Positions 8,675 through 23,324 of a stretch of DNA of 49,024 nt are shown piece after piece. The position numbers and the translations under genes are program-made. Within the stretch, counting starts at the first letter, position 1; each line of letters starts with the position of its first letter. The notes beneath the pieces were generated by a model. The model worked only from the letters and a program-made list of their open reading frames with translations, was not told where the DNA came from and did no database searches. Source of the stretch: a virus; UHGV virus genome UHGV-0384005. One strand, given 5' to 3'.

Positions 8675-9448
8675 CTATTTATCAGCGACTGCAGGTGCCG
8701 CTAATTTTGCAGATAACGCCTCAAGTTTCTCGATGGCCAGCACGAAATGAGCAGGTAAAACCTTTTCCTCCGGCGTACTGATATCGGTGATCGGTAACTC
8801 TTTATGGGACATGCTCCGGCGACCGCCACGAACAACATCACGCAATAATTCCCGCTCACAAGCTCTCATGTTCTCCAGCGCGACTTCCGCCGCCGTGAGT
8901 ATCCTCCGCAGTTCGGCAGCTATCGCTGGGATATCATCAACTGTAATCGGATTGGGCGCCGGGTTTCTGCATGCGCGGCGCAACGCCATCCAAACCCCAC
9001 TTACCCATGCATTACGGTATTGAAAGCTCTGCGCTATATCGTTAATCAGTCCTCGCAGTTCCTCTTTCTGTCGCCAGTTCAACGGCTCACCAGCGCATTT
9101 TGGAACGGGTTCTACATAGCCATATTCACCATTCTTCCGGATAGCTGGCAGCACCTCGTTCGTTACCCACTTGCGGAATCGCCACGCGGTGGTTCCATGC
9201 TTTACTGCATCGCGGCAGCGGAGGATCAGGGTGTAGAGGCCGGATTCGTTGATGATATTGGCTTCACCCTGACGACCTATGTTAAACATAGACCGCTCAT
9301 CATCGTCCAATCGTGCGATAGCCTGCGTAACATTCTGGATATTTAAGGCAGTGCAAATGTCATTTGCCACAAACCACGGCTCACCATCAACCATCACCAC
9401 GCGTACCGGGTGGTTTTCCTGAAATGAAAATACGGCAAGAGCGCTCAT
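8675..9448 (-). CDS. Antirepressor with an N-terminal Bro-N domain
   Basis: FSFQENHPVRVVMVDGEPWFVANDICTALNI...INESGLYTLILRCRDAVKHGTTAWRFRKWVTNEVLPAIRKNGEYG matches the Bro-N/Ant consensus. Last gene of a minus-strand operon. Confidence 0.8.
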   Translation of the reverse strand: MSALAVFSFQENHPVRVVMVDGEPWFVANDICTALNIQNVTQAIARLDDDERSMFNIGRQGEANIINESGLYTLILRCRDAVKHGTTAWRFRKWVTNEVLPAIRKNGEYGYVEPVPKCAGEPLNWRQKEELRGLINDIAQSFQYRNAWVSGVWMALRRACRNPAPNPITVDDIPAIAAELRRILTAAEVALENMRACERELLRDVVRGGRRSMSHKELPITDISTPEEKVLPAHFVLAIEKLEALSAKLAAPAVADK

Positions 9449-9675
9449 TCTCCCCCCTTATCATTCAGTTGTTCCGACAGGGACAGCGAGCAGCCTCGCG
9501 CTTCCTGTGTCAGTTCGCGAGCGACGATAAGGAGTTTGGCAGCCTCCTGCATATATAGCGATGCTTCATAACTGGAGATTGTGCGGTGGACTGATGATAC
9601 CAGTGCTTCTACTTGCGCCAGGCGCTCGTCAATCAGCTCCAGATGGCCCTGGATATTTAGCTGTACCTGATTCAT
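9445..9675 (-). CDS. Hypothetical protein of the antirepressor operon, coiled-coil-like. Start overlaps the upstream gene.
   Basis: 76-aa ORF, translationally coupled on both sides. Confidence 0.5.
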   Translation of the reverse strand: MNQVQLNIQGHLELIDERLAQVEALVSSVHRTISSYEASLYMQEAAKLLIVARELTQEARGCSLSLSEQLNDKGGE

Positions 9676-9836
9676 ACGGCTACCCCGCTAACCGGGATAC
9701 GGGCAGACAGAACGAGCACAAAGCGGCTGGCAAACTGGCGACGGGCTTCCCGTTCGGACGGGGCGATCGTGGTCAGTTGATGAATATGGGATTTTTTATC
9801 TGTGCGGACGACTGCCGCGAAAGTGAATTTGAACAT
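9672..9836 (-). CDS. Small leading ORF of the ant operon (MFKFTFAAVV...), in the icd-like position
   Basis: Internal ATG of ORF 9672..10001; the 5' part of that ORF is the structured leader/sRNA region. Confidence 0.35.
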   Translation of the reverse strand: MFKFTFAAVVRTDKKSHIHQLTTIAPSEREARRQFASRFVLVLSARIPVSGVAV

Positions 9837-9997
9837 GGTGCACACTCCAGTTTGGTTATGGGTGCTACCACCAGAGTTCTCACGCTCTAAGGGGTGGTAG
9901 CCCAGACGGGGGTGAGAATACCGGCCCAAACGACACCGGCCAGCCTTTCGGCTGCCCCGCCTGGGCCACCATAATTCAGGTGTGCGCAGGCACTGAC

Positions 9998-10095
9998 ACA
10001 AAAAAACACGCTGGCGCGTGTTGTGCGCGTTTGGGGATTCGGGTTCTCACGCCCGGCTGCGGATTTTGCCGCAACGCGCTAACTCTACCGTCCAA
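9998..10095 (-). ncRNA. Candidate c4/CA-like antisense regulatory RNA at the head of the antirepressor operon
   Basis: Minus-strand promoter-like TTGACG-18-TAGAGT (~10111..10082). Several stem-loops. An intrinsic terminator (ACACGC-tggc-GCGTGT + U7) ends near 10000. The motif GTGAGAAC recurs twice downstream in the mRNA leader (9877-9886, and a complementary UUCUCAC at ~9913). Confidence 0.4.
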
Positions 10096-10133
10096 ACGTC
10101 ACGCACGTCAATAATTTAAGTCAATATTTTACC

Positions 10134-10149
10134 CTGTGACCAGTCACAG
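10134..10149. promoter_or_regulatory. LexA-box-like palindrome CTGTGACCAGTCACAG (CTGT-N8-ACAG) upstream of the ant-operon sRNA promoter. Also a member of the GTGAC-NN-GTCAC family.
   Basis: Sequence match to the CTGT-N8-ACAG frame. The centre is GC-rich, unlike the canonical AT-rich boxes. Confidence 0.35.
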
Positions 10150-10182
10150 GAACAGGTGTTTTTATAGTTTACTTTACTTTGA

Positions 10183-10821
10183 TTGGTAGGAAAAACATCA
10201 TATACATCATATAATAACCACATTCTTATAGGTGTTATGTCTGGAGTTCGTAAAATGGATTTGTTGACTTGTTTTCTATTTGTACTTTCTGAAAAAGCAA
10301 GTGATTTAAAAGAGTATTGGAGAATAGAAGTTATCCGTAAAGATAAGTTTTCGTGGCGAAGATTATTAGCCAGAAAGAGTGACCGGAACCGTAAATTTCT
10401 CTTCTGGTGGCGTCTGGCCAATGAGATGTACCTACAAGGTTCCAGGCACCAGAGAAAGGTCGCTACAAAGATTCAGGATAAGCTAAAAAACGCATATGCA
10501 GCTGACATAGAGTTGGGATTAACTGTAGGCTCCGGGCTAACCATACACCACCACACAGGCATTGTGATTTACCACAAGGCAATTATTGGGAAAAACTTTA
10601 CCATCCGTCAAAATACCACGATAGGTGGAGTTCAGGGCATGGATGAAAACGAGCGAATGGTTATTGGTGATAACGTCGACATCGGTGCTAATTCATGTCT
10701 GGTTGGTCGATTTCATATTGGTGATAATGTCACTGTCGGCGCTATGTCTTTTGTGAATAAAGATATACCAGCCAATAGCACTTACATTTGTCGTAAAAAT
10801 CCAACCATTAAACAAAAGTAA
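10183..10821 (+). CDS. Hexapeptide-repeat acetyltransferase (CysE/WcaB-like). Moron in an AT-rich island; start codon uncertain (M1/M19/M25).
   Basis: LbH repeats IGKNFTIRQNTTIGGV...IGDNVDIGANSCLVGRFHIGDNVTVGAMSFV. Confidence 0.65.
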   Translation: MVGKTSYTSYNNHILIGVMSGVRKMDLLTCFLFVLSEKASDLKEYWRIEVIRKDKFSWRRLLARKSDRNRKFLFWWRLANEMYLQGSRHQRKVATKIQDKLKNAYAADIELGLTVGSGLTIHHHTGIVIYHKAIIGKNFTIRQNTTIGGVQGMDENERMVIGDNVDIGANSCLVGRFHIGDNVTVGAMSFVNKDIPANSTYICRKNPTIKQK

Positions 10822-15200: not shown

Positions 15201-16268
15201 TTTCGCGATGATTTCGTAGCCAGTGCGCAGGCCTGTGTTGCCTTTCCCTTCCGCTGATGATTTGCGGTCGTTATCCAGTGTGCAGGTAATTTTTGCGGCC
15301 GGGTACAGGTTCACCAGCTGCTCAACAACATGAATCATGTTATTTGCCGATACGGCGACAACTACGGCATCAAAGCGCTTTTTCGGATCCTTTCTAGTCG
15401 CCAGCCATACTGATGCGCCTGTTGCGAAGCCTTCGGCTACCGCGATATTTTGCGCGCCTTTCAGGTTGCCGATCACGAAGCAGGAACCCACGAAATCACC
15501 GGTGATGACGGCGTTGGTCTGAAATTTACCGCCACGCTTATCAATACGCTGCCAGCCGACTATTTGCCCGTCTTTGCGCCCGTCCAGATGGGACAGAGGG
15601 ATAGCCATATAAGTGGTTGGCCCGCTGCTCCATCTGGCGCTATCGTGACTGGTCACGCGACGTACATCACACGCGCTAAATACGTCACGAATGCCTTTTT
15701 TCACAGCGTAAGGCCATGAACCGTCCTCAGCAGGCGCATGCTCCCAGGCGTGATGGAATGCAAGCCAGCCAAGCAAACGCTCATGGTCTAATTGGTTGTT
15801 TCGTAAGTCATTAATGCGTTGCTGTTCGGCGCGGCGTCTGCGGGCTTCTGCCTGGCGTTCGATGCGGGCGCGTTCTTCTGCTGGCTGTGCGACCACGGTC
15901 GCATGATTTTTTTGTTGGTCACGGCGGTACTCGGAGAAAAGGAAGGAAAACCCACTCCAGGAACCAGCATCACTGCCCTTCTGGACAAAGTTTATAAAGG
16001 GGTAGCTGATGCCGTCTTTGCTGTGTTCCAGGCGCGAATAGATTTCGACGCGGCCTTTGAGGCTCTTTTCCAGTGCTTCTGGCGAAGGGCCATTATAGGT
16101 GGAATAGCGTTCCTGTCCGCCGCGCGGATTCAACTGGATGTTATCAGCACAGGCTGGCCAGTTAATGCCAGCCATCTTTGCCAGCTCTGTTAGCTCATCC
16201 CGTGCAGCTTCAAGCAATGAGAACGGATCGCTGCCAAAGCGATCCGCATAGAATTCTTGTAAGGTCAT
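12264..16268 (-). CDS. repA: Multifunctional replication protein RepA (primase-helicase), N15 RepA-like
   Basis: 1334 aa. Walker A GMGSGKST. Its size and position (between the tel/ant region and cB) match N15 RepA, which I recall as about 1324 aa. Confidence 0.9.
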   Translation of the reverse strand: MTLQEFYADRFGSDPFSLLEAARDELTELAKMAGINWPACADNIQLNPRGGQERYSTYNGPSPEALEKSLKGRVEIYSRLEHSKDGISYPFINFVQKGSDAGSWSGFSFLFSEYRRDQQKNHATVVAQPAEERARIERQAEARRRRAEQQRINDLRNNQLDHERLLGWLAFHHAWEHAPAEDGSWPYAVKKGIRDVFSACDVRRVTSHDSARWSSGPTTYMAIPLSHLDGRKDGQIVGWQRIDKRGGKFQTNAVITGDFVGSCFVIGNLKGAQNIAVAEGFATGASVWLATRKDPKKRFDAVVVAVSANNMIHVVEQLVNLYPAAKITCTLDNDRKSSAEGKGNTGLRTGYEIIAKFNGIKCVYPIFEDDPQLECSDFNDLHKLRGLRETTRQLFGKANRLSTSTDLLTLTLNKLKTIKRDNRRTFAKELLQAVDIGMLTCPVPNSPSDLFKMFCIVLREMDLENVYRATIKDHIARRLNRKCRTAQAPRSFSDRITDPNKRPQHITYKRFETSVMTEEVLQYVQQLQGIVIVRAGMGSGKSTGLLRPLMHDADRGVSVAHRVSLIGGLWEMMTEKKGAKADILHYQDPGYQEMAPYANKLTICINSIVKGCWQPLMRQHDYFGFDEATQGLRAILSGKAMENPVAVFNTLIDALARTELHPIMVDADANDLLVDLAELAMKRREEMGLPAWLQIHVIELPVDVRNRETGEPIRVFYTEKDRIMTEVIKAVELGEKIMLATDSSTFAEDVTATLRQRYPEKKFLCVNQKSKPEPEVEAFTNKPKQMVKKYDGLIYSPSISSGVSIEQKHFDRHFGMFCGEVVPSDAIQMLRRDRTAKEFIIGFDKVRAKRETDPKKIERAFAQALLATAGMNGEVTDVVFDGDRISMGVANTDFTRMKIKAAAIEASARNDYACNMICIMHSDGYKVAPLASDELANSIGKELRKEAREIVWEQTLDLHLNIETPDESEREEILKKRALTLEEQAKLVRWDIENELKIPVNEDNLKFYFDGARDKVRRYETMLLDEVTARRYDREESAINFTYAFKQTGQWQYFVVTAMTREQADEAFQAKHPGITDYKVKATPAVEVGMRGFYALKSAALRQYFIDCGIDPETMTGEATQARMKYARDKLMTDERRDLLNNVLRIGGFMTPKGKPKVPEALFKNICESLGLKTDKRRAREGDKRPTIRFVDPESAAFMMEILENRQEDGLSLQLHKGDKKATEVDHGLDLNIYMDHKTRSTDGQNLDAPHSVISEALATLPVPVPEAWAMTALSDDELATMNTWSPASIAMTFASLYLTEFMDRLSSNELRRLREYITGMATGGYDAPEAFYG
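15644..15657. repeat. Palindrome CGTGACTGGTCACG (family GTGAC-NN-GTCAC), inside repA
   Basis: Identical 14-mer at 22759. Related site at 10134. Confidence 0.35.
15887..15904. repeat. SopB-box-like palindrome GTGCGACCACGGTCGCAt, one arm mismatch, inside repA coding sequence
   Basis: Member of a 5-copy family resembling the F sopC core TGGGACCACGGTCCCA. Confidence 0.55.
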
Positions 16269-22437: not shown

Positions 22438-22763
22438 TGGCCATGACCCCAGCAGAACGGCAGAAGTTGCGCCGTGAGAGACTAAAGAAATCTGGTACCA
22501 GCCGCCGCGACTGGATCCTTGAACCAGAAGAACTTCGAATGTTAGCTGAAATTTGTGTACAGCGCCGTCCGGGCAGAACCCCATATTCCGAAAATGAGGT
22601 TATTGGGTTACTGATTAGGAAAAACTACAAAGAACTTCAGAAAACCCTGTCCGGATCCTGCCAGCGATGCGGTCAGAAGTTTCCAATATCTGAATGTATT
22701 TGTGACGGTGATGGTTCATGTGCGTTAACGACAATCCGTCTGAAACTCGCCATCAAAGCGTGA
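22437..22763 (+). CDS. Hypothetical protein (108 aa, basic N-terminus, Cys cluster)
   Basis: ORF. Confidence 0.5.
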   Translation: MAMTPAERQKLRRERLKKSGTSRRDWILEPEELRMLAEICVQRRPGRTPYSENEVIGLLIRKNYKELQKTLSGSCQRCGQKFPISECICDGDGSCALTTIRLKLAIKA

Positions 22764-22772
22764 CTGGTCACG
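22759..22772. repeat. Palindrome CGTGACTGGTCACG (family GTGAC-NN-GTCAC), overlapping the RBS region of gene 22784
   Basis: Identical to 15644-15657. Confidence 0.35.
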
Positions 22773-23005: not shown

Positions 23006-23054
23006 GTTGAATCAAAATTTTTTGTAAATTCAGCTATATCGTTTGCGAATGCAA

Positions 23055-23070
23055 CTGTATTTTTATACAG
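23055..23070. promoter_or_regulatory. LexA (SOS) box aaCTGTATTTTTATACAGta, overlapping the promoter region of gene 23094
   Basis: Matches TACTGT-(AT)4-ACAGTA at nearly every position. Confidence 0.6.
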
Positions 23071-23093
23071 TATAAACAATGTTGGTAAGGATA

Positions 23094-23324
23094 ATGGTAG
23101 ACAATTCGATGGCAGAAATGGTCGTATCAGGTTGTGAAAAATTGGATGCCCAACTAAGCGATCTCGACGCTGTTCTTGATATGGTTAGTATCGCGATAGC
23201 ATCGCCAGAGGTCAGCCTGCATCTTAGGGAAGTTAACCGTATGCTCCACATGTCCCGCAGGATGGTGAATACGTGTCGGGATTTGAATGCAGCTGAAGGA
23301 AGAGCCACCCAACCAATTAAATAA
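23094..23324 (+). CDS. Small protein (76 aa) behind a LexA box. Candidate SOS-inducible antirepressor or induction factor.
   Basis: AAGGAT RBS. A terminator follows. The 2007 report that the N15 antirepressor belongs to the SOS regulon (and Tum/GfoA-type small antirepressors) supports the inference. Confidence 0.45.
   Translation: MVDNSMAEMVVSGCEKLDAQLSDLDAVLDMVSIAIASPEVSLHLREVNRMLHMSRRMVNTCRDLNAAEGRATQPIK

Follow-up and report, generated by a model that had tools for sequence, protein, structure and literature searches.

Gene content and organization of the locus

The window (the whole 49,024-nt stretch of the UHGV virus genome UHGV-0384005) encodes a protelomerase, recognized by four TelK/ResT Pfam domains, and a 1334-aa RepA-like ORF. 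The locus described here is 99.9% identical to Citrobacter freundii AR_0116 plasmid unnamed4 and comprises a minus-strand operon of three genes, preceded by a structured leader. A search of the whole window against Rfam returned exactly 3 matches, all on the minus strand, full length and above the gathering threshold, and all of them fall at this leader. In the direction of transcription the features are as follows:

10133-10150, no strand assigned: palindrome CCTGTGAC-TG-GTCACAGG, the LexA-like box of the sequence-only reading
10082-10111, minus strand: predicted sigma-70-type promoter TTGACG-18-TAGAGT, counterpart of N15 Pa
10001-10075, minus strand: IsrK/seqA-type 5' leader, about 75 nt if terminated (Rfam isrK, c4-a1b1)
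10044-10050, minus strand: a1 target GUGAGAA, in the loop of leader hairpin 2
10028-10035, minus strand: b1 target CCCAAACG, complementary to the loop of C4 hairpin 2
10000-10022, minus strand: intrinsic terminator, stem ACACGC/GCGUGU, loop GCCA, 7 T at 10006-10000
9890-9976, minus strand: C4/CA-type antisense RNA, an outer stem of 17 bp enclosing two hairpins, with a single-stranded junction
9925-9932, minus strand: b' antisense site CGUUUGGG, in the loop of C4 hairpin 2
9912-9918, minus strand: a' antisense site UUCUCAC, in the single-stranded junction of C4
9873-9888, minus strand: AGAG/CUCU hairpin carrying the a2 target GUGAGAA (9883-9877) in its loop
9864-9872, minus strand: alternative-helix strand GGUGGUAGC, a possible partner of 9901-9893, the 3' strand of the C4 outer stem
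9845-9855, minus strand: b2 target CCAAAC (9855-9850) and icd Shine-Dalgarno sequence GGAG (9848-9845)
9672-9836, minus strand: icd-like gene, 54 aa (NCBIfam NF033153 phage_ICD_like, 64.5 bits; phiKO2 annotation)
9445-9675, minus strand: antA-like gene, 76 aa (phrog_6301 / phrog_10889, anti-repressor; 82% identical to N15 gp31)
8675-9448, minus strand: antB-like gene for a Bro-N protein of 257 aa (Pfam Bro-N, 1.3e-21; PHROG anti-repressor Ant)

An operon made up of a small ORF, a 76-aa ORF and a Bro-N antirepressor had been proposed from the sequence alone, and it was borne out by these assignments (9836-9672, 9675-9445 and 9448-8675, respectively). The three genes are joined by ATGA overlaps, in which the ATG of antA overlaps the stop codon of icd and the ATG of antB that of antA. 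The 257-aa antB-like protein matches the product of N15 gene 30.

Promoter and terminated leader

The leader was compared across a set of 40 distinct sequences collected from phage records and IMG/VR contigs, this window among them. The promoter-like element of the sequence-only reading was readily found (TTGACG-18-TAGAGT, 10111-10082), and it is retained as TTGACG...TA(A/G)AGT in 40 relatives. From the geometry of the promoter and the isrK model, which begins at 10075, we infer a transcription start near G10075. The isrK family (RF01394) matched positions 10075-10001 of the minus strand, terminator included, with 67.7 bits against a threshold of 50, and c4-a1b1 (RF03163) matched positions 10088-10036 of the same strand with 51.2 bits against a threshold of 46.7 (Rfam). 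The order of elements in the leader is hairpin 1 (10075-10056), hairpin 2 (10055-10040, with a1 in the loop), b1 and the terminator. Hairpin 1 is 100% paired in the 40 leaders, with 4 compensatory pairs; the folding of the terminated leader as a whole is modest (z = -1.5 relative to shuffled sequences).

The clean intrinsic terminator announced near 10000 is present, with its stem and U-run on the minus strand, and its stem can be extended to 7 bp (AACACGC/GCGUGUU, 10022-10005); the loop given earlier as 'tggc' is the plus-strand reading of GCCA. It was also picked up by an independent terminator scan, is 99.3% paired across the relatives, and is annotated as a putative terminator in the records of N15 and phiKO2.

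The C4/CA-type antisense RNA

Downstream of the terminator and upstream of icd lies a GC-rich block, which was assigned to the C4 family. The cmscan comparison with Rfam C4, by which the c4 idea was to be checked, was positive (RF01695: 77.3 bits, threshold 45, model positions 1-87 of 87, minus strand 9976-9890). The minimum free energy of the block is -54 kcal/mol (z = -4.6), and the corresponding fold is identical to the structure of the Rfam model. The outer stem is 100% paired in the 40 sequences, and 4 of the 5 pairs of hairpin 1 have changed on both sides. Taken together, the intramolecular helices (two leader hairpins, terminator and C4 fold) are 98.5% paired in the 40 leaders, with 11 compensatory pairs, as compared to 32-47% in slid controls.

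The strand GGUGGUAGC is invariant, and the helix that it can form excludes the C4 fold; its pairing with the C4 3' strand is kept in all 40 sequences, and phiKO2 supplies the two compensatory changes seen. For the read-through leader two near-isoenergetic folds were predicted, one of -115.0 kcal/mol with a1b1 paired in cis to b'a', and one of -112.0 kcal/mol with the C4 fold. By analogy, this pair of predicted folds mirrors structures A and B of IsrK (PMC4825925). Nested co-folding of CA with its targets predicted no intermolecular pairs, because loop-loop contacts fall outside of what this model represents.

Pairing sites and their co-variation

The sequence GUGAGAAC occurs at 10050-10043 and again at 9883-9876, and these are two of the three copies of this 8-mer in the 49-kb window. 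The earlier claim that a leader motif is repeated or complementary downstream stood as far as the two copies and the complement at 9918-9912 are concerned; it failed where it made the leader a regulator of the downstream copy, since the leader GUGAGAAC is identical, not complementary, to 9883-9876 and therefore unable to pair there. The carrier of the complement UUCUCAC is the C4-type RNA (9890-9976), and both GUGAGAA copies are its targets. The arrangement is that of c4, CA and CI: a' and b' are complementary to a1 and b1 upstream as well as to a2 and b2 downstream in the same transcript, and the downstream target b2 abuts the ribosome-binding site of an icd-like first gene, with 1 nt between b2 and the Shine-Dalgarno sequence and the icd AUG at 9836.

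The a':a2 helix is paired in 40/40 leaders, and at 5 of its 7 pairs both partners have changed (one position reads GC in 20 leaders, CG in 16 and UA in 4); a1:a' is 88.9% paired. Column-based counts for the b helices are lower (68-72% paired) because the lengths of the b loops differ between types. Alignment-free duplex energies for cognate versus non-cognate partners were -14.9 versus -7.2 kcal/mol for a'/a1, -9.3 versus -3.5 for a'/a2, -13.9 versus -9.0 for b'/b1 and -10.5 versus -6.8 for b'/b2, i.e. cognate duplexes are better by 4-8 kcal/mol. The leaders fall into five a-types and about seven b-types, joined in at least 14 combinations, with each type matched at all three of its sites; the number of combinations implies that the two specificity modules assort independently. 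That the three sites stay matched in spite of this independent assortment is strong evidence that the predicted pairings are functional. In every lineage the duplexes with a1/b1 have a higher predicted stability than those with a2/b2, and the latter are short, with a predicted 7 bp for a'/a2 and 6 bp for b'/b2, so the sites proximal to the ribosome-binding site may not be the primary site of action.

These data bear directly on the identity of the terminated RNA. With the C4 match downstream of the terminator and the isrK match upstream of it, the terminated 75-nt leader is, judged by its sequence, a target-bearing RNA of the IsrK/seqA type, homologous to Salmonella IsrK and P4 seqA, and not c4. 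The sequence-only reading had taken the structured stretch of about 80-100 nt ending near 10000 for the c4/CA-like repressor itself, pairing with the downstream sites and blocking the translation of icd/ant. It is true that the terminated leader is a genuine RNA element and conserved (67.7 bits to Rfam isrK), that IsrK, to which it is homologous, is a stable sRNA acting in trans (PMC4825925) and that the leader holds a sequence complementary to 9918-9912. However, its GUGAGAA is identical and not complementary to 9883-9877, so that no pairing is possible there; the C4 covariance model matches 9890-9976 and not the terminated stretch, whose own folding is modest and whose own matches are to isrK and c4-a1b1; and the homologous short RNA of Gifsy-1 activates expression (PMC4825925). 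We therefore regard this assignment as very improbable, and a repressor role of the terminated leader is already contradicted by its sequence. An RNA of about 75 nt ending near 10000 will probably be detectable, yet it would not be c4. The call of the P1 c4 / N15 CA family was nonetheless correct, as an antisense module with an Rfam C4 match does head the icd-antA-antB (Bro-N) operon, and the raw sequence features listed in the sequence-only reading are all present, with positions accurate to within a few bases.

The palindrome upstream of the promoter

The palindrome lies in the sequence CGTGACTGGTCACG. A CTGT-N8-ACAG box had been noticed here and linked to LexA; the box exists literally, at 10134-10149 and 22 bp upstream of the -35 element, but the LexA role did not survive the analysis. 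With an ad hoc matrix for the 20-bp operator of E. coli, the palindrome obtained a heterology index of 22.7 and rank 587 in the window, compared to values of at most 9.9 in the reference set. The CTGT-N8-ACAG pattern is matched twice in the window, where 0.52 matches are expected, and as many are reached in 11 of 100 shuffled sequences, i.e. its occurrence is not significant. The spacer is GC-rich (GACTGGTC). The other 39 relatives read CCGTGAC-(T/G)G-GTCAC(G/A)G or, in one case, lack the site; CTG/CAG on both arms is found in 1 of the 40 relatives, namely in this window, and the N15 counterpart reads ACGTGAC...GTCACGG.

A canonical LexA box, AACTGTATTTTTATACAGTA, is found elsewhere in the window, at 23053-23072 (core 23055-23070), with a heterology index of 1.6 by the same ad hoc matrix. 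It is located directly upstream of an 81-aa AntC-like ORF (23079-23324), which shares PHROG 6301 with AntA (both are strong matches) and can be aligned with an N15 ORF, itself unannotated, located after the box that N15 has. A BLASTP comparison of AntA with this ORF gave no alignment; the two proteins align at 21-29% identity. AntC of N15 is a LexA-controlled antirepressor (PMC3121763, PMC4488713), and a canonical box upstream of the AntC-like ORF fits the published LexA control of N15 AntC.

Could the promoter of the ant operon nevertheless be under SOS control, with LexA bound to CTGT-N8-ACAG at 10134-10149 and repressing or modulating transcription? The exact minimal core and the known LexA-controlled antirepressors of this phage group, such as N15 AntC (PMC3121763, PMC4488713), speak for it; the heterology index far above the reference set and above that of the box at 23053-23072 (both by the ad hoc matrix), the GC-rich spacer, the position of the site 22 bp upstream of the -35 element and not over the promoter, the lack of CTG on one or both arms in 39/40 relatives, and the presence of the same core inside repA and at 22760, places without SOS logic, make it scarcely credible.

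The supposed LexA site is a different palindrome and belongs to a three-copy family. GTGAC-TG-GTCAC is present in the window in exactly 3 copies (10136, 15645 and 22760), with about 0.05 expected by chance, and in N15 likewise in 3 copies, at syntenic positions (28550, 33237 and 39269). The 14-bp form CGTGAC-TG-GTCACG is kept at three syntenic places in N15 and in the window, of which one lies upstream of immA, one is internal to repA and one precedes the gene47/antC region. A scan of viral contigs for the 14-mer returned N15-like ones with 2-3 copies apiece among single matches on many others, a distribution that gives no indication of function. A search of the literature for the 12-mer returned only unrelated mammalian primer sequences.

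Several other identities of the palindrome were considered and rejected. The Sop sites of N15 and of the window, expected for a SopB centromere, are of the form GCGACC-NN-GGTCGC and are located elsewhere; the annotated operators of the N15 CB repressor are AT-rich and unrelated; a CRP-like site (TGTGA...TCACA) would require a spacing of 6 instead of 4, and the relatives read CGTGA; and an RNA hairpin or terminator would have a 2-nt loop and no U-run after it.

Annotation of the C4 region

In public records of this phage group the C4 region is labelled as a protein 'transcriptional repressor', as Icd-like, or left blank, and the PLSDB gene table (without RNA genes) of the near-identical Citrobacter plasmid shows no feature there. 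A protein-coding role for the interval from the terminator to icd, as a 'secondary immunity repressor' (N15 cA/gene 32, phiKO2 gp30, P4 cI; here ORF 10001-9672), is practically untenable even though a 109-aa ORF with a TTG start spans the region and database records annotate such ORFs as repressors, a label inherited by PHROGs, because 1- and 2-nt indels among the relatives (alignment columns 296 and 335-337) fall inside the C4 block and therefore break any reading frame, the substitutions are compensatory for RNA helices, a conserved protein signal begins only at the ATG at 9836 (the NCBIfam Icd-like model covers residues 2-49 of the 54-aa ORF), and such elements are treated as RNAs in the literature (PMC3632133). 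The annotation is corrected accordingly: the C4 region is an RNA element, not a protein repressor.

Relationship to known immunity systems

The region is very probably the regulatory leader of an immA-type 'anti-immunity' operon (icd-antA-antB) of an N15-like telomere phage-plasmid, for which control by a CA RNA is proposed; the RNA family matches, the folds, the synteny with N15 and the three-way co-variation of the pairing sites carry this assignment. N15 immA and the window have the gene order telN, antB (Bro-N), antA, icd, CA RNA, terminator and promoter in common, and in phiKO2 the order telN, antB (Bro-N), antA, icd, RNA and terminator is as in the window. The N15 cA 'secondary immunity' locus shows about 77% nucleotide identity and is colinear over the whole 336-nt leader, the likeness spanning the promoter, the two hairpins, the terminator, the C4-type RNA and the a2/b2 region; N15 AntA is 82% identical to the 76-aa protein. 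The N15 palindrome occupies the same upstream position, with its outer base pair changed symmetrically relative to the window, and the genes upstream of the palindrome are replaced in the window by a divergent serine acetyltransferase. The pairing specificities differ (N15: a = CUCUCAA, b = ACAAGAAG; window: a = GUGAGAA, b = CCCAAACG), hence cross-immunity at this locus is not expected. The N15 immA locus with CA RNA, icd, antA and antB was reportedly described by Ravin, Svarchevsky and Deho in 1999; for the action of CA (termination versus translation) we draw on general background and secondary citations. The immA locus is stated to comprise icd, antA and antB (PMC4488713), and IsrK and C4 are homologues of seqA and CI, with similar systems used by P1, P7 and N15 (PMC3632133).

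The immI region of P1/P7 shares with the window the Rfam families C4 and c4-a1b1, targets that flank the antisense RNA, b2 at the icd ribosome-binding site, and an Icd-like first gene followed by an antirepressor. In P1/P7, the c4 RNA is said to control icd-ant through the a1 b1 and a2 b2 sites, as described by Citron and Schuster in 1990. No nucleotide match of P1 to the locus was present among the matches listed. Unlike in P1/P7, the antirepressors of the window are a 76-aa AntA and a Bro-N AntB, and b1 is separated from the antisense RNA by an intrinsic terminator, a feature of the isrK model too. Excision of the antisense RNA from the leader is RNase P-dependent in P1 and P4, and the RNA represses in trans. 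The satellite phage P4 is 81% identical in the C4 core and in a portion of the leader; its seqA corresponds to the IsrK-type leader of the window and its CI to the C4-type RNA (PMC3632133, PMC4825925). In P4, however, the system terminates transcription of the replication operon, whereas the downstream genes in the window are icd and the antirepressors.

The isrK-orf45(STnc1160)-anrP locus of Salmonella Gifsy-1 (Hershko-Shalev et al. 2016, PMC4825925) resembles the window in the full-length match to the isrK model, terminator included, in read-through, proposed for the window, into a processed RNA and an antirepressor gene, and in two near-isoenergetic leader folds, one of which joins mid-leader sequence to the RNA further downstream; the genes that follow are not the same (orf45/anrP versus icd/antA/antB). 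The short IsrK RNA of Gifsy-1 activates translation in trans and does not repress it (PMC4825925). It is a stable Hfq-binding sRNA that acts in trans on its own read-through mRNA, as described for Gifsy-1 only (PMC4825925).

Proposed mechanism

Processing of the RNA, termination, translational block and the decoy role of the leader are modelled here on the homologues. Transcription would start near 10075 from the promoter at 10111-10082, and most transcripts would end at the intrinsic terminator, giving the IsrK/seqA-type RNA of about 75 nt, as for IsrK (PMC4825925). Read-through transcripts would carry the C4/CA RNA (9976-9890), which, by analogy to P1 c4 and P4 CI, may be excised as a stable RNA of about 80 nt. 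Its junction (a') and the loop of its hairpin 2 (b') are predicted to pair with a2 (9883-9877) and b2 (9855-9850) at the icd ribosome-binding site, which would block the translation of icd. By analogy with P1 c4, P4 CI and N15 CA, antA and antB would be silenced along with icd, owing to the ATGA stop/start overlaps, and the untranslated operon RNA would be exposed to premature termination.

The a' and b' sites may also pair, and more strongly, with a1 and b1 of the leader, which are predicted to bind the CA RNA about 6 kcal/mol tighter than a2 and b2. In cis, in the precursor, this pairing would compete with the C4 fold; in trans, it could involve the short leader RNA, as for IsrK in Gifsy-1. 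By this analogy the short leader may possibly act as a CA decoy, and hence as an activator. Two further readings, that the 75-nt leader is an IsrK-type anti-antisense decoy and that the palindrome is an operator of an uncharacterised regulator, are offered tentatively, and we consider them somewhat doubtful.

Significance

The system as such is already known from N15 CA, P1 c4, P4 CI and IsrK; the locus is an ordinary telomere-phage member of this group and leaves the current understanding unchanged. It is of modest interest that the a/b specificity code is modular, that the upstream targets are the stronger ones and that the palindrome is present in three copies.

Telomere phage-plasmids are common in Enterobacterales, Klebsiella among them. 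From the a/b code it can be predicted which of these phages, when co-resident or superinfecting, are able to cross-regulate each other's antirepressors, and the independently shuffled a and b modules are a compact natural case of RNA-based hetero-immunity. If the palindrome is indeed an operator, its regulator may link anti-immunity, replication and SOS induction. If the leader is indeed a decoy, then, given the two precursor folds of similar energy, telomere phages would have a self-contained RNA toggle for the expression of their antirepressors, set by how many transcripts terminate relative to those that read through.

The palindrome upstream of the immA promoter

GTGAC-TG-GTCAC, an exact palindrome whose 14-bp form is CGTGACTGGTCACG, occurs in three copies in the window, and the trio is syntenic between the window phage and N15:

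window 10136-10147, 15645-15656 and 22760-22771: palindrome copies
N15 (sequence L010) 28550, 33237 and 39269: palindrome copies

One copy lies 5' of the promoter of immA, the icd-antA-antB antirepressor operon, another about 620 nt within repA, and the third in the junction preceding the gene-47 homologue; sites 1 and 3 have in common the wider context GTGACTGGTCAC-N-G(A)GGGTAAAA. The copy beside immA had been taken for a LexA-like box in the sequence-only reading; for all three copies, identification as a LexA, SopB or CB site was rejected.

The window carries, divergent from the immA promoter region, a gene for a hexapeptide-repeat serine acetyltransferase:

window 10255-10821, plus strand: hexapeptide-repeat serine acetyltransferase gene

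The surroundings of this gene look AT-rich by eye. At its position 38 of the 39 relatives exhibit instead a double CTGATCAG-GTT-CTGATCAG element, with two GATC sites, and small genes on the same strand. The acetyltransferase region looks like a moron insertion with a boundary just 5' of the palindrome. The conserved element ACTGATCAGGTTCTGATCAGT (N15 L001:2024-2044, for example) consists of two palindromic CTGATCAG units with one Dam GATC site in each and precedes the palindrome by about 20 bp in almost every relative (columns 14-33 of A2, the alignment of immA leaders); it is absent from the window.

Dispersed repeats, probably of SopB type

The motif GCGACCACGGTCGC is scattered across the window in five exact copies, one more than the four members of its family in N15:

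window 15889, 18332, 24689, 28989 and 36687: GCGACCACGGTCGC copies
N15 33481, 35932, 41126 and 45563: members of the GCGACCACGGTCGC family

Two positions of the family, just 3' of gene Q and just 5' of the late promoter, presumably correspond to IR2 and IR3, the dispersed SopB centromere sites described for N15.

Annotation and assembly of immA loci

Public records place protein-coding genes over the C4 RNA block, namely N15 gene 32, phiKO2 gp30, KpLi5_32, P4 cI and the minus-strand ORFs of Kpn74, annotated as 'transcriptional repressor', 'Icd-like' or hypothetical proteins. PHROG 1743 and 6928, labelled 'transcriptional repressor', really are the Icd-like protein.

Several IMG/VR contigs, e.g. 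IMGVR_UViG_2703718687_000004 and 3300045988_113976, contain the immA locus twice, in opposite orientations (sequences L024, L025, L026; L029, L031, L032; L042-L045; L046, L047). Assembly of hairpin-ended linear genomes as head-to-head dimers may account for the opposed copies.

A LexA box and a probable AntC-type ORF

A canonical LexA box is found directly 5' of an 81-aa ORF, which belongs to the same PHROG as AntA:

window 23055-23070: LexA box CTGTATTTTTATACAG, heterology index (misfit to the E. coli operator matrix) 1.6
window 23079-23324, plus strand: 81-aa ORF, PHROG 6301

The N15 counterpart of this ORF starts at ATG 39604 and is without annotation in NC_001901. The 81-aa product is probably an AntC-type antirepressor under SOS control.
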